A DNA stretch of 6,056 nucleotides. Source: a virus. The stretch is taken from the UHGV virus genome UHGV-0385605, one strand, 5' to 3'. Every line of letters starts with the position of its first letter. Position 1 is the stretch's first letter. The notes below the pieces were generated by a model. It made no database searches and was not told the DNA's origin. It saw only the letters and a program-made list of their open reading frames with translations. A program made the position numbers and the translations under genes. This document shows positions 10 through 5,979 of the stretch, piece after piece.

Positions 10-414
10 ATGGAAAAATCAGCTACAGAAAATACAGAACTACCAGCTTTTAACGCTGAAATAAACAAAGTAGTAGATGTATTATTCCCTATCGATAATG
101 TAACACATAACCCTACAAGTGCTGTAAACACTTTAATCTCTCCTACAGCTAGTCAGCTAGATAAAGAGAAATATGCTAGTATGATGCAAAAAGTACCTAC
201 AGACAGAAGTAACAAAGGCTTAGACGATGAAACAATTATGGCTACAACACCAAGTAGAAAAAACCAAACTTTAACAGATATGGATAAATACGCTAGTGCA
301 GTAGCTAGTTACGCAGAATTAACCGGTATGCAGAATGGAAAAGAAACAACCCCAGCTAATACAGAACCTAGTACAAATGTATCGGCAGAACCTGCAACAA
401 GTTCAGCAGAATAA
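10..414 (+). CDS. Hypothetical acidic, Thr/Ser/Ala/Glu-rich low-complexity protein with an internal DKxKYAS duplication. Possibly a scaffolding-like or virion-associated protein. May be the C-terminal part of a 152-aa protein whose start is at 6012 if the genome is circular.
   Basis: ORF from the six-frame track. The reading frame is open from base 1 (ctc gaa gta ATG) with no upstream stop. It uses the same + strand as all the other genes. Two similar motifs are present: gataaagagaaatatgctagt at 160-180 and gatatggataaatacgctagt at 277-297. No recognisable catalytic motif. Confidence 0.5.
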   Translation: MEKSATENTELPAFNAEINKVVDVLFPIDNVTHNPTSAVNTLISPTASQLDKEKYASMMQKVPTDRSNKGLDDETIMATTPSRKNQTLTDMDKYASAVASYAELTGMQNGKETTPANTEPSTNVSAEPATSSAE

Positions 415-467: not shown

Positions 468-1679
468 ATGATAGTACAAAATGTAATAAGTAATAAATTA
501 GGCTTATCGCCTTTAATTACTAAACAAAAAAATATTGCCCCCGCAGTAGGTGCAGCTTTAGTTAGTGCAGCCGGTTCTCTTTTCGGTGGTGCTGTAAACT
601 CTGGTAATAGTTGGGCAAAACAACAACGCCAAAACGATTGGAATGTAAAAGTACAAGATTATTTCTTGAAAAAACAACAAGACTATAACGATAAAATAAA
701 TCAACAGAATTTCGATTGGCAAGACGAATCTAATGTAAGAGCAAGAATAGAGAAAGCAGGATATAACCCCTATCTTTACAACGGACAAGCAAGCTCACAA
801 AGTGTAGCAAGCAATTCGGCAGGTAGTCCTCCTAGTGAAAATATGCCTAGTGGATATGATAACTCGCTTGGTCAAGGTATAGCGAATATGGGTAACTCTT
901 TCGCTCAAGTTTTAGGAGCGATGCAAGATTACAGAAATAAAGACCAAGAATATAAAAGAAATGCTTTGGCAGATGCTTATATGAATGAACAAACTGGAGG
1001 TAATGGAGGTGTTTTAGGTGCAACAAGTTTTGCACAATATAAGCAGGCAAATGCTGTAGCTAATATGAATGATGCTAATAGATTTCATCAAGAAATGATG
1101 AATAAAATAGACCAAATGCAATATATTGACAAAAACGGAGTACCACAGACTAACCCAGACGGAACGCCAATGACATTAGCACAGGCAAATGGATTAGGAA
1201 TGTCTCGACAATCAATGGTTAATGTAGAAAAAGCAGTAAAGGAAATTTCATTACTAGCAAGTCAAGGAAAATCTATAGATCTTGATAATATTGTAAAAAA
1301 ATGGAAGTTAGATAATGGTTATCACGTTCAAGAATTAAACCTTTTAAAAACACAAGTTAGACAGCTTCAGTCACAGATATTTCTTAATAATGCAAATACA
1401 TTCTTAGCTTATCAAACGGCTAAAACTCAACAATTTACGCAAGATAATTTATTCGCTAATACTCAATACATTAACGCCCAAAGGAATGGATATAACTCTA
1501 TGTTACCTCTACAACGTGGATTAATACAATCACAAATACAAGGTAATAATTTGAATAACTTATATAATCATGGTGTTCTGAATTCTAGAATTAATTACGA
1601 AAACTTTAATAACCAAACTTTTGGCTGGCTGTCTCCACAGACAATTATGCCAATATTTGGCGGTTTATTTAAAAAATAA
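468..1679 (+). CDS. VP2: Microviridae minor capsid / DNA pilot protein (VP2 / H-like)
   Basis: 403-aa ORF. The N-terminal segment is Gly/Ala-rich and hydrophobic (APAVGAALVSAAGSLFGGAVNSGNS). It is followed by a long Gln/Asn/Ala-rich, predicted coiled or low-complexity body and a C-terminal IFGGLFKK. This architecture and size are typical of microvirus pilot proteins. The position between the small acidic ORF and the large intergenic region fits the VP1-X-VP2-VP4 order. There is no Shine-Dalgarno sequence, as for all genes here. Confidence 0.65.
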   Translation: MIVQNVISNKLGLSPLITKQKNIAPAVGAALVSAAGSLFGGAVNSGNSWAKQQRQNDWNVKVQDYFLKKQQDYNDKINQQNFDWQDESNVRARIEKAGYNPYLYNGQASSQSVASNSAGSPPSENMPSGYDNSLGQGIANMGNSFAQVLGAMQDYRNKDQEYKRNALADAYMNEQTGGNGGVLGATSFAQYKQANAVANMNDANRFHQEMMNKIDQMQYIDKNGVPQTNPDGTPMTLAQANGLGMSRQSMVNVEKAVKEISLLASQGKSIDLDNIVKKWKLDNGYHVQELNLLKTQVRQLQSQIFLNNANTFLAYQTAKTQQFTQDNLFANTQYINAQRNGYNSMLPLQRGLIQSQIQGNNLNNLYNHGVLNSRINYENFNNQTFGWLSPQTIMPIFGGLFKK

Positions 1680-1811
1680 AGAAATAAAATATTAAAGCAA
1701 AGACTATTCTAATAGCTATCATTACAGCTATAATAGTTAATATCAATCTTAATATATTACTATATTCATTATCATTCTTCATATCTTTATATTTTAATTT
1801 ATTGTATAAAC

Positions 1812-1832
1812 ATTTGTAATTTATTTACAAAT
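1812..1832. repeat. AT-only inverted repeat / hairpin (ATTTGTAA-tttat-TTACAAAT) in the AT-rich part of the intergenic region
   Basis: Read directly. The 8-bp arms at 1812-1819 and 1825-1832 are perfectly complementary with a 5-nt loop. It sits within a roughly 200-nt stretch (1680-1885) that is almost entirely A/T. Confidence 0.5.
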
Positions 1833-1889
1833 ATAAGATATTAACTTGTCTTACATCTATGTAAATTTAATTATTTATGCTTTATTAAC

Positions 1890-2170
1890 TCTGCGCTGTG
1901 AAGCGTGGAGTTATTTTATTTTTGGGGGTATAGGGGGCATTTTTAATGCCTCCCATAGCGTCTAGCACTACAAAGCGTCAGCGGTTAAGGCGCTAGGGCT
2001 TGCCCTCGTATGACGAAATGAGCGAATGCGACATGTAGGAATTAAAGCGCCCCTTATACGTCAAAAAAAGGCTTTTTAAAGCCGTAAAAATGAAAAAACC
2101 TCCGCTTTTTTCCCTACTTTCTTGTTTTAAGTAGGGAAAACTGACACCACGCTAAATGCGTGGGCAGTTT
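1890..2170. other. GC-rich, hairpin-dense non-coding island inside the large intergenic region. Candidate complementary-strand (minus) origin and/or structured RNA.
   Basis: This block has roughly 50% GC, against AT-rich flanks. Several stem-loops can be read directly:
- GGGGGCAT-tttta-ATGCCTCCC (1933-1954)
- AGGG-cttg-CCCT (1996-2007)
- TGACG...CGTCA (2010-2014 / 2059-2063)
- GGCTT-ttta-AAGCC (2070-2083)
- GAAAAAA-cctccgc-TTTTTTC (2092-2112)
- CCCTACTT-tcttgtttt-AAGTAGGG (2112-2136)
- CTG..CCACGC-taaat-GCGTGG..CAG (2141-2167)
No ORF of 60 aa or more falls in any frame. Confidence 0.55.
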
Positions 2171-2171
2171 T
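2141..2171 (+). terminator. Candidate intrinsic terminator closing the circular transcription unit (GC stem CCACGC/GCGTGG plus outer CTG/CAG, then TTTT)
   Basis: The stem-loop at 2147-2163 is followed by gcag and TTTT at 2168-2171. It is preceded by two further perfect hairpins at 2092-2136. It lies downstream of VP2 and upstream of the Rep promoter, which is where a terminator would be expected for a single-strand, single-direction genome. Confidence 0.35.
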
Positions 2172-2235
2172 CATCAACAAATCAAAAAAACCAAGGTTTA
2201 AAGACTAAACTATTACTAAATAAATATAAACTTTA

Positions 2236-2260
2236 ATTAACGTTAATCATACTGTTAATT
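2236..2260. promoter_or_regulatory. 12-bp perfect palindrome ATTAACGTTAAT with a second GTTAATT half-site 6 nt downstream. Candidate operator or protein-binding site just upstream of the promoter.
   Basis: Read directly. 2236-2247 is its own reverse complement. GTTAAT recurs at 2254-2259. Both lie immediately 5' of the putative -33/-7 promoter elements. Confidence 0.3.
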
Positions 2261-2262
2261 AT

Positions 2263-2293
2263 ATTGCAGTTCAGAACAAAAAACCTATATTTG
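2263..2293 (+). promoter_or_regulatory. Bacteroidetes-type (sigma-AB-like) promoter with a -33 TTG at 2264-2266 and a -7 TATATTTG at 2286-2293
   Basis: The sequence contains attG followed 19 nt later by TAtaTTTG. This matches the published Bacteroides consensus of TTTG at -33 and TAnnTTTG at -7 with a 19-21 nt spacer. It sits directly upstream of the small ORF / Rep gene. No other TAnnTTTG was found in front of any other gene in the window, consistent with one polycistronic transcript. Confidence 0.4.
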
Positions 2294-2297
2294 TGGC

Positions 2298-2480
2298 ATG
2301 AACTTTGATATAGTCGATAATTTCAATGAAACAAGCCCTTATATACTTACTTGTGGTGATTGTTCTTGGTGTGTACTTAATTTTAGTAGCAGTGGACACC
2401 TTACCGGCTTTATATGTTCTAATCATCCTAGCCACCCTGAGGTGAAATTAACAGATAAATGCCACTTACTCTATGAATAA
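2298..2480 (+). CDS. Small Cys/His-rich hypothetical ORF (60 aa) with a CxxCxxC signature, overlapping the Rep start by 8 nt. Coding status uncertain.
   Basis: ORF from the six-frame track. It contains CGDCSWC ... C ... H ... HPSHPE ... CH, which is a possible zinc-ribbon-like motif. Its stop overlaps the Rep ATG (ATGAATAA), suggesting translational coupling. The predicted transcription start falls at its ATG, which would make it leaderless. The putative origin-like motif also overlaps its 5' end, so it may be non-coding. Confidence 0.25.
   Translation: MNFDIVDNFNETSPYILTCGDCSWCVLNFSSSGHLTGFICSNHPSHPEVKLTDKCHLLYE
2301..2330 (+). promoter_or_regulatory. Candidate plus-strand replication origin (Rep nick site), phiX174-ori-like AACTTTGATAT followed by an AT-rich spacer
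   Basis: The phiX174 origin begins CAACTTG^ATATTAATAAC, where gene A protein nicks between G and A. Here 2301-2311 reads AACTTTGATAT, a 10/11 match with one inserted T. It is followed by agtcgataatttcaatg. In phiX the origin lies within or next to gene A, and here the motif lies just 5' of the Rep gene. This call is inference from motif similarity only. Confidence 0.3.
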
Positions 2481-4263
2481 TTTAACCGATAAACAATCGT
2501 TTTCAGACAAAGAATTTCAAATAAGTCCCAATCTATTTGGATGTTTAAAACCTAGTATTATTTATAACAAAAATACTGGGCACTACGAAAGTGTACCTTG
2601 TAAAAAATGTGTTTATTGTCTAAATGTAGAAGCTAGTAGACAATCTTCAAGAGTAAAAAAAGAAATTCAACAACATATATATAGTGTATTTTTTACACTT
2701 ACATATAATAACGAATTTATACCACGTATGGAAATGTTTAAAGACAAACACGGAAAAACTCAATTTAAACATATAGGTAGAACTGCAAATATGCACGATT
2801 CTACACCATACAACTCTAAAGGCTTAGACCATCGTTATCGATATTCAGACAATGTAGAAATACCTGAAATTGAGAAGAACGAACAAATAACAAAAAAACA
2901 TGTACAATTCGGTGTTGTCTGTAAAAAAGACATACAGAATTTTCTCAAGCGTTTACGCAAAAAAATCGATAAATTAAATCTTTCAGATAATGACAAAAAA
3001 ATTCGTTACTACATCGCATCAGAGTATGGACCAATTACCAAACGTCCGCACTACCATGGTATCATCTTCTTTGATTCCAAACAACTCGGCTCTCAGATTA
3101 AAAATCTCATCGTTGAATCATGGGGTATTTTCGAAAAAGAATCCGGTAAATTTAATAAGTATAAGTTTACACCATTTGCGGATACTTTTCGTACCCTCGA
3201 ACACATCAAAATATGTGATCCCAACACAGCAAAATATGTTGCTGAATATGTTGCAAGTAATATGGGTTTACCAAAAATGTTACAAGAACGCTGTTCAAAG
3301 CCGTTCCATTTACAATCTAAAAACCCTGTTATCGGTGAATTCAAAGCTAGCAGGAAAGAAGTTTTCGAACTTATCGACTCAGGAATTATCAGACAAAATC
3401 GCACAATATTTACAAAAGATGGAGTTGAAACAAAAGCTTATCTTCGCATATCCCAAGATTCATTATCTTCCGTTTTCCGCAAGTGTTACCGATTTAGTGA
3501 GTTATCTAATGATTCAAAATATAATACTTATAACTTCTATTCTAAATACATCAGAGAATGGAAAGAATATATAAATACTAAACTTATAAATTATGCTATT
3601 AAAAATAATATTAGCTTTGATAGAGTTAATCTCTCTTTTTATCTTCGAAAAAATCGTTCAGATTATTTCCGTTGTTGGTGCTCTATTAACAAAAGTGAGG
3701 AGTATAATAGACTTGAAATGGACAAAGACCAGAATTGGTATAGTTCTAAAAATGTTTATAAACTATCTCAAGAACTTGACATTATTCGATATAGTTACTT
3801 CGGTGATTTTACTCGTGCTTATCTTATTGTTTTTGATAGGTATTTATATCTATATGAACAAGATAGACTACGTGAGTTCTATAATAACTTTAATAACTTA
3901 ATTGATGAAGTTGGATATTATCCCGCAGAACTAGAAGTATTCCCAGTACTTAAGTATGCAATACCAAAGGTAAAAAAATATACACCTCATGGTGTTAACT
4001 TGTCTTTTGATACAGATAATGCAAAAGAAGAACGTTTAAGGCCTTATATAAATTATATCTTTAATACATCTTTTCAGTATTGGGTAACCCCTTACAATGA
4101 GTTTGGAAGTTTCGACCACAAAAAATATGGTGAAGAATATTCCGCAAGAAATACAAAAGTATTTCAACAATACATGGAAGAACAGAAAAATAGACTAGAC
4201 AAACGAAACAAGTCAAAAAAATTCAACAATATTAGAATAAATAATAATCGTGTTATGGATTAA
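2473..4263 (+). CDS. VP4: Rolling-circle replication initiator protein (HUH endonuclease, Microviridae VP4 / gpA-like). It has a large C-terminal extension of about 300 aa of unknown function.
   Basis: The three canonical rolling-circle replication (RCR) motifs are in the correct order and spacing. Motif I is FFTLTY (nt 2689-2706). Motif II is HYHGIIFF (nt 3049-3072). Motif III is AKYVAEYVASNMG with two catalytic Tyr four residues apart (Y255 at 3235-3237 and Y259 at 3247-3249), matching the phiX YVAKYV arrangement. There is an N-terminal Cys cluster (C24, C43-x2-C46-x2-C49). The protein is 596 aa. Confidence 0.9.
   Translation: MNNLTDKQSFSDKEFQISPNLFGCLKPSIIYNKNTGHYESVPCKKCVYCLNVEASRQSSRVKKEIQQHIYSVFFTLTYNNEFIPRMEMFKDKHGKTQFKHIGRTANMHDSTPYNSKGLDHRYRYSDNVEIPEIEKNEQITKKHVQFGVVCKKDIQNFLKRLRKKIDKLNLSDNDKKIRYYIASEYGPITKRPHYHGIIFFDSKQLGSQIKNLIVESWGIFEKESGKFNKYKFTPFADTFRTLEHIKICDPNTAKYVAEYVASNMGLPKMLQERCSKPFHLQSKNPVIGEFKASRKEVFELIDSGIIRQNRTIFTKDGVETKAYLRISQDSLSSVFRKCYRFSELSNDSKYNTYNFYSKYIREWKEYINTKLINYAIKNNISFDRVNLSFYLRKNRSDYFRCWCSINKSEEYNRLEMDKDQNWYSSKNVYKLSQELDIIRYSYFGDFTRAYLIVFDRYLYLYEQDRLREFYNNFNNLIDEVGYYPAELEVFPVLKYAIPKVKKYTPHGVNLSFDTDNAKEERLRPYINYIFNTSFQYWVTPYNEFGSFDHKKYGEEYSARNTKVFQQYMEEQKNRLDKRNKSKKFNNIRINNNRVMD
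2990..3574 (+). CDS. Candidate overlapping gene (194 aa, basic, Ser/Leu/Asn-rich) embedded in the +1 frame of Rep. Status unproven.
   Basis: A 585-nt open frame inside an AT-rich gene. The chance of about 194 stop-free codons in an alternate frame at this composition is very low (roughly 1e-6 per start under a crude random model). Microviridae are known for embedded genes, for example phiX B and K within A. No protein motif was recognised. Confidence 0.2.
   Translation: MTKKFVTTSHQSMDQLPNVRTTMVSSSLIPNNSALRLKISSLNHGVFSKKNPVNLISISLHHLRILFVPSNTSKYVIPTQQNMLLNMLQVIWVYQKCYKNAVQSRSIYNLKTLLSVNSKLAGKKFSNLSTQELSDKIAQYLQKMELKQKLIFAYPKIHYLPFSASVTDLVSYLMIQNIILITSILNTSENGKNI
3593..3901 (+). CDS. Candidate embedded membrane protein (102 aa, 2-3 predicted TM helices) in the +1 frame of Rep. 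Possible phiX-E-like single-gene lysis protein. Status unproven.
   Basis: The translation is MLLKIILALIELISLFIF...LFDIVTSVILLVLILLFLIGIYIYM, which is strongly hydrophobic with helical TM-like segments. It is in the same +1 frame as ORF 2990..3574 and separated from it by a single stop. The precedent is phiX174 E, which lies in the +1 frame of D. Caveat: +1 frames of AT-rich genes are intrinsically T-rich at codon position 2 and look hydrophobic by artefact. Confidence 0.25.
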   Translation: MLLKIILALIELISLFIFEKIVQIISVVGALLTKVRSIIDLKWTKTRIGIVLKMFINYLKNLTLFDIVTSVILLVLILLFLIGIYIYMNKIDYVSSIITLIT

Positions 4264-4305: not shown

Positions 4306-5979
4306 ATGTCACTTTCAAAAGTCCCTTTAATTAGACCAAGCAAAGCAAACAGACCTCGCAACGCTTTCGATTTATCTCAAAGACATTTATTTACCGCCCC
4401 CGCTGGTGCTCTTCTACCTGTCCTCTCTTTGGACCTCATGCCACATGATCATGTAGAAATTAACGCTAGTGATTTTATGAGAACCTTGCCTATGAATAGT
4501 GCAGCTTTCGTATCTATGAGAGGTGTTTACGAATTCTTCTTCGTACCTTACAAACAATTATGGTCAGGATTTGACCAATTTATAACCGGTATGAGTGATT
4601 ATAAAACCTCTTACATGTACTCTTTTAAAAATAAAGTACTTGAAAATTGCCCTAATTTCAGTATTCAGGATTTCGTAAAGTTCATTAATGCTAAAGCAGA
4701 TAAAGATATTCACGGATTCCCCAAAAAAAATGGTGTATTCAGAATGTTAGACCTTTTAGGCTATGGAAAATATTCAAATAGTTCAGGTACAGCCTATACA
4801 GATATTCCTGAAAAAACAACAAAAGATTTAGGTAATGTCACTCCTTTTAGAGCCCTCGCATATCAGAAAATATATTCAGACCATTACAGAAACTCAACTT
4901 ATGAAGATTTCCAAATAGAGTCTTTTAATGCTGACTTCTTCGGACAAAGTGGAAAAATGAAAGCAGTAGTTTCTAACGAACCATGGGATTACGACTGGTT
5001 TACTATGAGATATAGAAATGCAGGTAAAGATATATATACAAACTTACGCCCTACTCCTTTATTCTCTGTTGAAAACTTCGGTAATGGCTTAGCACCTGGC
5101 GCACTTGGTGTATCTGTTTCTAGTGATAAATTTAATACAGAAATAGACATCGTTAATAATAGTGGTAGTTTAAATCTTTCAGTAAATGATATTCGCAACG
5201 CTTTCGCCCTCGATAAACTCGCAAGTATCACAATGAGAGCAGGAAAAACCTATAAAGAACAAATCGAAGCACACTTCGGTATTTCAGTAGACGAGGGAAG
5301 AGACGGAAAATGTGAATACTTAGGAGGATTTGACTCTAATATGCAAGTTGGAGATGTAACCCAAACAAGTGGAACAACAACAACCGGACCTAAAGATACT
5401 AAATTCGGTGGATACCTCGGACGTACAACTGGTAAAGCTACAGGAAGTGGTAACGGACAAATTAAATACGATGCTAAAGAACATGGTATATTGATGTGTA
5501 TTTATTCAATAGTTCCCGATGTTCAGTATGATTCAACAAAAATAGACCCTTTCGTACAAAAAATACAAAGAGGTGATTTCTTTATTCCTGAATTTGAAGA
5601 CTTAGGAATGCAACCTTTATTCTGTAAGACTATTTCATGGAAATATGCTCAAGGTAACTTAAATTCTCCTACTGGCTCAAAATCTCCCGCTTTTGGTTGG
5701 CAACCTCGTTACTCAGAATATAAAACAGCATTAGACACAAATCACGGACAATTCTCAAATGGAGAACCGCTTTCTTTTTGGAGTATAGGTAGAGCTCGTG
5801 CTAACGACTTCTTACACACCTTTAATATCAGTAGTTTAAAAATTAACCCACATTGGCTAGATTCAGTTTTCGCAGTTGATTATAATGGAACAGAACTTAC
5901 CGACCAATTTTATGGAGAATGTTATTTCAATATTCTAAAAGTTTCAGACATGACAGTAGACGGCATGCCACGTGTATAA
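4306..5979 (+). CDS. VP1: Microviridae major capsid protein (VP1 / F protein)
   Basis: The 557-aa ORF has the conserved Microviridae VP1 N-terminal signature (R)N.FDLS..H.FT...G.L.P...L.P.D......R.LP......R.....FFVPY.QLW, here PRNAFDLSQRHLFTAPAGALLPVLSLDLMPHDH..MRTLPMNSAAFVSMRGVYEFFFVPYKQLW. Its size matches gokushovirus-type VP1. It contains a Thr/Gly-rich putative surface loop (nt 5356-5460). It lies downstream of Rep on the same strand. Confidence 0.9.
   Translation: MSLSKVPLIRPSKANRPRNAFDLSQRHLFTAPAGALLPVLSLDLMPHDHVEINASDFMRTLPMNSAAFVSMRGVYEFFFVPYKQLWSGFDQFITGMSDYKTSYMYSFKNKVLENCPNFSIQDFVKFINAKADKDIHGFPKKNGVFRMLDLLGYGKYSNSSGTAYTDIPEKTTKDLGNVTPFRALAYQKIYSDHYRNSTYEDFQIESFNADFFGQSGKMKAVVSNEPWDYDWFTMRYRNAGKDIYTNLRPTPLFSVENFGNGLAPGALGVSVSSDKFNTEIDIVNNSGSLNLSVNDIRNAFALDKLASITMRAGKTYKEQIEAHFGISVDEGRDGKCEYLGGFDSNMQVGDVTQTSGTTTTGPKDTKFGGYLGRTTGKATGSGNGQIKYDAKEHGILMCIYSIVPDVQYDSTKIDPFVQKIQRGDFFIPEFEDLGMQPLFCKTISWKYAQGNLNSPTGSKSPAFGWQPRYSEYKTALDTNHGQFSNGEPLSFWSIGRARANDFLHTFNISSLKINPHWLDSVFAVDYNGTELTDQFYGECYFNILKVSDMTVDGMPRV

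Follow-up and report, generated by a model that had tools for sequence, protein, structure and literature searches.

The stretch of DNA analyzed in this work, virus genome UHGV-0385605 (6056 nt, in the following the window), is essentially a whole microvirus genome. Its gene for the VP4-like rolling-circle replication initiator (Rep) contains two further open reading frames (ORFs), both in the +1 frame of Rep, which we term ORF-A and ORF-B. A first-pass annotation had singled out the second, a hydrophobic ORF of 102 aa, as a possible E-like lysis protein. As judged by comparison with related genomes, ORF-B is one of two evolutionarily maintained overprinted genes that are unannotated in this virus group.

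Two reading frames overprinted on the Rep gene

ORF-B is present in the ORF call exactly as first described (3593-3901, 102 aa, Rep codons 374-476, with identical translation). It lies wholly within Rep, its end being separated from the Rep stop codon by 362 nt. The earlier description of its surroundings has to be corrected. The open +1 stretch, originally given as 912 nt (2990-3901), extends from 2978 to 3901 in runs of 198 and 103 codons. It is interrupted before ORF-B by two in-frame TAA codons and not by a single stop, and the ATG does not follow directly but is the second codon past the second stop (ATT, then ATG). Moreover, the larger upstream partner ORF-A, which is far more widely conserved than ORF-B, had been passed over.

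Synonymous-codon shuffles of Rep with the protein sequence held fixed served as the null model for stop codons. For 2978-3901 they yielded 14.6±2.5 expected stops with gene-wide codon usage (P = 0/5000) and 7.9±1.6 with local usage (P = 2e-4), as compared to the two observed, both of which are located at the junction of ORF-A and ORF-B. No stop is found inside ORF-A (12.7 expected), and none occurs in ORF-B, for which 6.5-7.2 are expected (0/3000; P<=4e-4). In the other genes of the window +1 open runs do not exceed 44 codons. Rep avoids NTA codons inside the overlap only: all ten valine residues are encoded by GTT there versus GTA in 11 of 17 cases outside, and ATA is used for 5 of 26 isoleucine residues inside versus 10 of 17 outside. 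The +1 sense frame alone is free of stops, while the +2 and the three antisense frames contain many in every lineage. An antisense gene as the source of the constraint is ruled out, as all antisense frames are stop-rich.

For the analysis of conservation, full-length Rep genes were collected from phages in GenBank, from IMG/VR and from bacterial genomes. The set comprises 48 distinct genes with pairwise identities of about one third to 99% and was supplemented with shorter, more distant Rep fragments. Nearly all of the Rep relatives examined, including those with as little as 24% identity, have a +1 run equivalent to ORF-A that crosses the HUH motif; among them are viruses of rodent, pig, cattle and chicken origin. 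The start of the run, with a conserved ATG and a Met-Lys-rich sequence, lies 20-30 codons ahead of the HUH motif, and its end about 150-180 codons behind it. ORF-B occurs in 24 distinct homologues from four subclades, in which the ATG (M1) is invariant, the length varies from 102 to 119 aa and the layout is kept. Stop codons in this frame of related Rep genes had been named beforehand as evidence that would speak against the gene. The frame proved to be open and the ATG conserved down to about 39-44% Rep identity, including prophages of Hoylesella nanceiensis and a Prevotella species. The remaining, more distant clades carry 4-6 stops in the equivalent frame, and ORF-B is therefore lineage-restricted.

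Selection was assessed in clusters of sequences at least 80% identical, in which Rep codon columns with an invariant amino acid were scored for synonymous polymorphism. In clusters with ORF-B the values are 0.329 upstream, 0.171 in the ORF-A region, 0.169 in the ORF-B region and 0.341 downstream (ORF-B region versus flanks: odds ratio (OR) 0.41, P = 1.5e-11). The corresponding values in clusters without ORF-B are 0.337, 0.162, 0.320 and 0.279 (OR 1.02, P = 0.94). Synonymous diversity in Rep, another point on which the proposal had been said to depend, is thus halved across ORF-B and not reduced where the frame is broken. Since the suppression follows the presence of ORF-B, the clades lacking it constitute a natural negative control. 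Over ORF-A, synonymous suppression is apparent in every clade group (OR 0.41-0.42, P<=7e-12). The alternative-frame dNN/dNS ratio, calculated with an OLGenie-like script of our own and not with the published program, amounts to 0.28 for ORF-B (bootstrap 0.17-0.41), as compared to 0.71 and 1.12 for the flanks and 0.77 (0.55-1.17) for the same region in clades without ORF-B. For ORF-A it is 0.31-0.49. Three of the four kinds of evidence which the first-pass annotation regarded as potentially refuting were examined, namely those on frame, synonymous diversity and hydrophobicity (see below), and none of them refutes ORF-B. In start and length, conservation, synonymous reduction and purifying selection alike, the comparative data are those expected of an overprinted viral gene, and ORF-B is almost certainly a real gene under selection.

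ORF-A has once been called independently as a gene (P0003, 80% identity). Its structure model, with a predicted local distance difference test (pLDDT) score of 36, is unusable, and a nucleic-acid binding function deduced from its net charge of +16 was rejected because Rep alone predicts +11.8±2.6 in this frame (P=0.08). ORF-A is the older member of a same-frame pair in which ORF-B lies downstream. In every lineage the ATG of ORF-B is found 1-6 codons past the ORF-A stop, for example as TAG-AAT-ATG or TAA-CCA-ATG. This layout appears to fit the classic arrangement for coupling by termination and reinitiation: ribosomes that finish ORF-A would reinitiate at the ATG of ORF-B, which would result in low, coupled expression. 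We give such translational coupling of ORF-B to ORF-A an even chance.

Database searches did not extend the family beyond this locus. ORF-B has no match in Pfam, PHROG or NCBIfam at E<=0.1, and neither for ORF-A nor for ORF-B was anything informative found in Pfam, PHROGs, NCBIfam, PADLOC, profiles derived from the PDB or a word search of 5.8 billion proteins. A full HMMER scan of 1.84 billion representatives with ORF-B revealed no relatives beyond its own locus. The large protein searches returned only fragments from the same locus, i.e. P0001, P0002 (partial) and the stray ORF-A call P0003, and a Foldseek comparison of the ORF-B model with viral structures was likewise without match. ORF-B would have originated de novo in a single subclade. 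Neither ORF-A nor ORF-B is annotated in any of the 11 GenBank relatives inspected, and we found no report of overprinted genes for Alpavirinae. The reference survey explicitly left overprinted genes out (PMC9239249).

Predicted membrane architecture of ORF-B

The three hydrophobic segments originally quoted for ORF-B are all found in its translation. Its grand average of hydropathy (GRAVY) is 1.49 as compared to 0.63±0.24 when Rep codons are redrawn with the codon usage of the genome (0/5000), and no other of the 131 +1 windows of the genome is as hydrophobic. The hydrophobicity originates from T at the third codon position of Rep, which is the second position of ORF-B. The caveat raised in the first-pass annotation, that T-rich third positions might account for the hydrophobicity in full, is therefore correct with regard to the mechanism. 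It fails as a full explanation, because the T-richness is local (58% in the overlap versus 35-38% elsewhere in Rep) and exceeds the prediction from codon usage.

Two hydrophobic blocks separated by a basic stretch recur in the homologues, the blocks themselves in four of four subclades. The N-terminal block, designated TM1 for transmembrane (TM) segment 1, contains conserved acidic or polar residues (E/D/Q), among them E11 and E19, and is modeled by AlphaFold2 (AF2) as a helix with pLDDT values of 92-94. The stretch between the blocks carries a net charge of +3 to +5 and is delimited by the hydrophobicity windows in most homologues examined. It overlaps the conserved Rep motif LEMDxDQNWYSS, with the Rep invariants D417, D419, N421, W422, Y423 and S425. 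The C-terminal TM segment is covered by an AF2 helix comprising residues 64-101 and is followed by a tail without charge. As a whole, the single-sequence AF2 model consists of two long helices (pLDDT 84, predicted TM-score 0.36). ORF-B is very probably a membrane protein. By the positive-inside rule the loop is predicted to be cytoplasmic and both termini should reside outside.

Genome setting and host lineage

Table 1. Features of the window, beginning with the overprinted frames and their host gene. Strand is given where assigned.
Feature	Position	Strand	Remarks
ORF-A, 194 aa, 585 nt	2990-3574	+	+1 frame of Rep; spans Rep HUH motif (aa 193) and catalytic Tyr (aa 255)
Junction	3572-3592	+	ORF-A TAA 3572-3574, in-frame TAA 3587-3589, one codon, then ORF-B ATG
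ORF-B, 102 aa, ATG start, hydrophobic	3593-3901	+	+1 frame of Rep ((3593-2473) mod 3 = 1)
ORF-B, N-terminal hydrophobic block (TM1), residues 1-33	3593-3691	+	Kyte-Doolittle 19-aa windows >=1.6, maximum 2.26
ORF-B, basic amphipathic loop, residues 34-61	3692-3775	+	seven K/R and one D (charge map)
ORF-B, strong C-terminal predicted TM segment, about residues 62-86	3776-3850	+	Kyte-Doolittle maximum 3.04
Rep, host gene of ORF-A and ORF-B	2473-4263	+	PF23343, PHROG 942
Major capsid protein	4306-5979		Pfam Phage_F; PHROG 514
Acidic 134-aa ORF	10-414	+	in position of VP3-like scaffolding gene
Pilot-like protein (VP2), 403 aa	468-1679		
Antisense mini-ORF, 37 aa, MKNDNEYSNILRLILTIIAVMIAIRIVFALIFYFFIF	1669-1782	-	one predicted TM helix; overlaps VP2 stop
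Gap, 618 nt	1680-2297		no ORF >=40 aa
Cys-rich 60-aa ORF (CGDCSWC...C...C)	2298-2480	+	overlaps Rep start by 8 nt

Rep matches Pfam PF23343 (4.4e-11) and PHROG 942 (4e-37), the latter covering aa 21-335 only. Two human nasopharyngeal Microviridae records are 87% identical to the entire window, and the Rep proteins of human saliva microviruses share 40-63% identity with that of the window. In a scan of bacterial genomes, Hoylesella (Prevotella) nanceiensis DSM 19126 proved to contain an integrated relative of full length (L032, NZ_KB904327.1, about 5800-11950) with Rep and major capsid proteins 63% and 68% identical, respectively, and with ORF-A and ORF-B intact. The prophage shows the same gene order as the window (orf60-Rep-MCP-orf134-VP2-gap, MCP denoting the major capsid protein), which places the attachment site between positions ~2265 and 2298 of the window and identifies a culturable lysogen. 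Hallella bergensis and further Prevotella species also carry integrated copies, which are more distant. The Rep protein is 38% identical to that of Hallella (Prevotella) bergensis DSM 17361, the species known as host of BMV6/7 from the work of Krupovic and Forterre (PMC3091885), and OR148995, a 63% relative, has been assigned independently to Prevotella (PMC10537320). On this evidence the window is an Alpavirinae-type (BMV-like) microvirus, and its close relatives are temperate phages that infect Gram-negative bacteria, the oral Prevotellaceae; the integrated relative in H. nanceiensis likewise points to oral Prevotellaceae as hosts of the lineage.

Among the remaining genes, the acidic 134-aa ORF gave weak DinI-like matches (PHROG 189, E=0.001; Pfam DinI, 0.09, below threshold), which are probably compositional. 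The Cys-rich 60-aa ORF has a 73% identical prophage copy, is listed as 'hypothetical protein' in saliva microviruses and may encode a zinc-binding regulator. The ORF-free gap harbors a GC-rich, structured and highly conserved non-coding element (~1886-2110, plus strand) with a mean column identity of 77% relative to the H. nanceiensis prophage and to viruses whose proteins are only 55-68% identical. RNAalifold predicted 51 base pairs for it from five sequences, ten of them with compensatory double changes, and its first hairpin (1886-1913) with the adjoining T-run resembles a terminator. There is no Rfam match for the element, and Rfam and tRNA scans of the complete window were equally negative. 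The element may represent a complementary-strand origin, a Rep nick site or a non-coding RNA.

ORF-B as a candidate lysis gene and its alternatives

To our knowledge, the route of lysis in microviruses is essentially unknown outside of the phiX174 group. For Alpavirinae lysis has not been described, and only VP1, VP2 and VP4 are recognized (PMC3394797; PMC3091885). Known single-gene lysis genes are small, encode membrane-associated proteins and overlap other genes (PMC10229422). ORF-B fits this structural class, being a small, overlapping gene for a probable membrane protein in a phage without endolysin. A role in lysis is suggested because no muralytic enzyme or holin is recognizable in the genome: with profiles from Pfam, PHROG and NCBIfam, none of the ORFs in the window showed a peptidase, an amidase or a holin domain. 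ORF-B would then be an integral membrane protein of 102 aa, encoded by the second cistron of the ORF-A/ORF-B pair, that lyses the host as a single-gene effector without the aid of an endolysin. It would perturb either the inner membrane or one of the membrane-bound steps in cell-wall synthesis, as phiX174 E and the lysis proteins of single-stranded RNA (ssRNA) phages do. Taken as a whole, the explanation that appears best to us, a genuine overprinted membrane gene coupled to ORF-A and most likely acting in lysis, falls a little short of an even chance. The action of ORF-B in host lysis, considered by itself, is put forward tentatively.

Sister clades without ORF-B contain a different, very hydrophobic +1 ORF of 51-142 aa further 3' in Rep, here termed ORF-C. 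It occupies Rep codons ~385-526 in L008/L009, ~447-507 in L028/L030, ~460-531 in L005/L075/L079 and 441-512 in L031 and is not homologous to ORF-B. Synonymous polymorphism is suppressed across ORF-C (1/82 versus 33/244, P = 6e-4; 2/32 versus 61/254, P = 0.02; pooled P = 4e-5), whereas the same columns show no suppression in other clades. The replacement of ORF-B by ORF-C may be read as the turnover that is typical of lysis genes, and we count it in favor of a lysis role. A more far-reaching proposal is that ORF-B represents a hitherto unrecognized kind of single-gene lysis protein, a 'protein antibiotic' directed against Prevotella and other Bacteroidota, and that Alpavirinae-type phages have repeatedly invented such proteins de novo in the +1 frame of the 3' half of Rep (ORF-B in one subclade, ORF-C in others), their translation being driven by that of the ancient, family-wide ORF-A through termination-reinitiation. 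We regard this as rather unlikely.

The similarity of ORF-B to phiX174 E is one of analogy. Both proteins are hydrophobic and of comparable size (91 aa for E), are encoded in the +1 frame wholly inside another gene of a phage without endolysin and exhibit a basic region behind a hydrophobic segment at the N-terminus. On the other hand, E is located inside the external scaffolding gene D and ORF-B inside Rep, and ORF-B possesses an additional strong C-terminal TM domain (TMD; residues 62-86). E consists of a single N-terminal TMD with an essential proline and a basic soluble domain, and it inhibits MraY in dependence on SlyD, with septal lysis as the outcome. BLASTP yielded only a hydrophobic match of 34 residues (18 bits) between the two, and no similarity is evident at the Pfam level. 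Of the original designation as an E-like lysis protein, the embedded gene for a membrane protein thus stands, while the likeness to E amounts to an analogy with no sequence similarity, another architecture and another host gene. The closest positional analogue of the ORF-A/ORF-B pair is the phiX174 A/B/K arrangement, in which two consecutive overprinted genes reside in the Rep gene (coordinates from J02482): K is a small, leucine-rich protein whose gene uses the +1 frame of A and begins at the stop codon of B. B differs from ORF-A in that it is acidic and lies in the +2 frame of A, and K differs from ORF-B in that it runs beyond A into C. With K, BLASTP aligned 19 residues at 14.6 bits, which does not indicate homology. 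By these comparisons ORF-B is analogous, not homologous, to E and K.

Overprinting of Rep is also found outside the phiX174 group. OrfN of the Bdellovibrio gokushovirus phiMH2K (AF306496; L139 3997-4326) is annotated in the +1 frame of Vp4, has one TM-like segment and carries the depositors' GenBank note 'similar to phiX174 E and K'. It spans the HUH and Tyr motifs and is therefore the positional counterpart of ORF-A rather than ORF-B, with no sequence similarity to either. The shared position hints that the catalytic core of Rep may have been overprinted in the +1 frame earlier, or more often, than in one family alone. OG63, inferred computationally in the C-terminal Rep region of reekeekeeviruses (PMC9865509), resembles ORF-B in its position in the less conserved C-terminal part of Rep, in having been found by conservation and selection and in having been missed by gene callers, but belongs to another microvirus clade with a much smaller Rep. 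The single-gene lysis proteins (Sgls) of ssRNA phages, such as MS2 L and PP7/M Sgl (PMC10229422), are likewise small membrane proteins without sequence relatives; their genes invariably overlap others, show rapid turnover among lineages and can be translationally coupled to an upstream cistron. They differ in stemming from RNA phages of Proteobacteria and in having a single TMD. Class II holins and pinholins are small proteins with two TMDs, a highly charged C-terminal cytoplasmic tail and a partner endolysin gene. ORF-B shows two Kyte-Doolittle blocks and two AF2 helices, which may correspond to TMDs; its C-terminal tail is not highly charged (net charge 0 to +1), and no muralytic domain is found in the genome.

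A number of observations weigh against ORF-B as a coupled lysis gene. It exhibits two hydrophobic blocks, while characterized single-gene lysis proteins have one TMD, and neither a conserved proline in TM1, as in the TMD of E, nor the charged C-terminal tail of holins is present. It sits in an early gene, Rep, as does phiX174 K and not E, and K is not a lysis protein. It is absent from several related clades, and the L022 group, L027 and L029 contain neither ORF-B nor ORF-C. Synonymous suppression fades across the last ~25 codons of ORF-B. Its KWxKTRIG sequence overlies the Rep motif EMDxDQNWYSS, such that conservation there can be assigned to neither frame. No Shine-Dalgarno sequence precedes ORF-B, nor does any other gene of the genome have one, and no scanned promoter site lies upstream of ORF-A or ORF-B. 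Sites of the sigma-70-like type (29 found, 26.5 expected) and Bacteroides -7 boxes (11 found, 9.2 expected) are about as numerous in the window as chance predicts. The missing Shine-Dalgarno and promoter signals are uninformative, since their absence is to be expected in Bacteroidota. Finally, an antisense ORF of conserved position with a single predicted TM helix (1669-1782), likewise unannotated, weakens the earlier view that the window holds no further candidate for lysis.

ORF-B may instead be a real membrane protein that is not a lysis effector and serves in K-like modulation of burst size, as a replication or assembly anchor, or in superinfection exclusion. All of the evidence for coding and for membrane association applies equally to such a role, ORF-B, like K, is placed in the +1 frame of Rep and begins just behind the stop codon of another embedded gene, and the lineage restriction of ORF-B implies that it is dispensable or replaceable. 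Furthermore, the predicted layout of two TMDs and a basic loop seems closer to small exclusion and immunity proteins than to lysis proteins with one TMD. Exclusion in particular is disfavored because a repressed prophage would hardly express a gene embedded in Rep. K itself has no TM-like window by the hydrophobicity criterion applied to ORF-B, and the phage still needs a lysis function, for which no enzyme was found in the genome. We consider a non-lysis membrane role a real, if somewhat doubtful, possibility.

Less probable is that lysis is encoded elsewhere and ORF-B serves another purpose, the prime candidate being the antisense mini-ORF at the VP2 stop. Antisense ORFs of 37-72 aa starting with ATG occur at the same place and on the same strand in six otherwise divergent genomes (the window, L010 and L130-L133), one of which lacks ORF-B. 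They combine a hydrophilic N-terminus with one C-terminal TM helix, and size and single TMD match those of typical single-gene lysis proteins. A Bacteroides-type -7 box, TATATTTG, is located at 1835-1828 on the minus strand about 46 nt upstream of the ORF in the window, but this motif is not enriched over chance, as mentioned above. The antisense sequences are too divergent to be aligned for a test of selection, and in L134 the equivalent ORF is on the plus strand. In addition, the microviruses known to us transcribe one strand only. All in all, we hold this alternative to be improbable.

It is very improbable that the +1 frame is translated exclusively as a fusion, either by readthrough from ORF-A into ORF-B or by a frameshift that produces a membrane-anchored trans-frame Rep. 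Indeed, ORF-A and ORF-B share one frame with only 1-2 stops between them, the single separating stop in the L002 clade is TAG, and TAG is reassigned in some Bacteroidota phages. The separating stops vary, however (TAA+TAA, TAG, TAA, TAA...TGA), yet at least one is always present, and variable stops combined with an invariant ATG argue against both kinds of fusion. No candidate slippery site was seen, although no search was made for one.

Strongly disfavored, and at best as improbable as a fusion, is the notion that ORF-B is untranslated and that its signals reflect nucleotide constraint on Rep (structure of ssDNA or mRNA, an internal origin or codon bias): the phiX174 origin does lie inside gene A, +1 frames of genes rich in T at the third position are intrinsically hydrophobic (several unselected +1 runs in relatives reach GRAVY values of 1.3-2.0), and in two subclades the null chance of zero stops is only about 0.06, but a structural element would neither clear stops from just one of five alternative frames across about 920 nt nor preserve an ATG where the run begins in 24 sequences nor yield a dNN/dNS of 0.28, and the constraint vanishes exactly in those clades in which the frame is broken.

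Overprinting in microvirus Rep genes is already known from phiX174 B and K and from OG63; comparative data now verify two overprinted genes in Alpavirinae-type phages as well, in viruses whose hosts are Prevotellaceae of the human mouth and gut. Genomes of this type, of roughly 6 kb, accordingly gain a gene conserved almost throughout the relatives examined, ORF-A, and the gene for a lineage-specific, probable membrane protein, ORF-B. The locus is also a clear case from nature of genes arising and being replaced through overprinting, with the sister clades lacking ORF-B as a built-in control. ORF-B is a concrete candidate for lysis that can be tested cheaply: knock-out mutations that are silent in Rep exist, and a copy with 57% identity is present in a lysogen in culture, H. 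nanceiensis DSM 19126. If the role in lysis holds true, ORF-B would be a new protein inhibitor of an envelope target in Bacteroidota.

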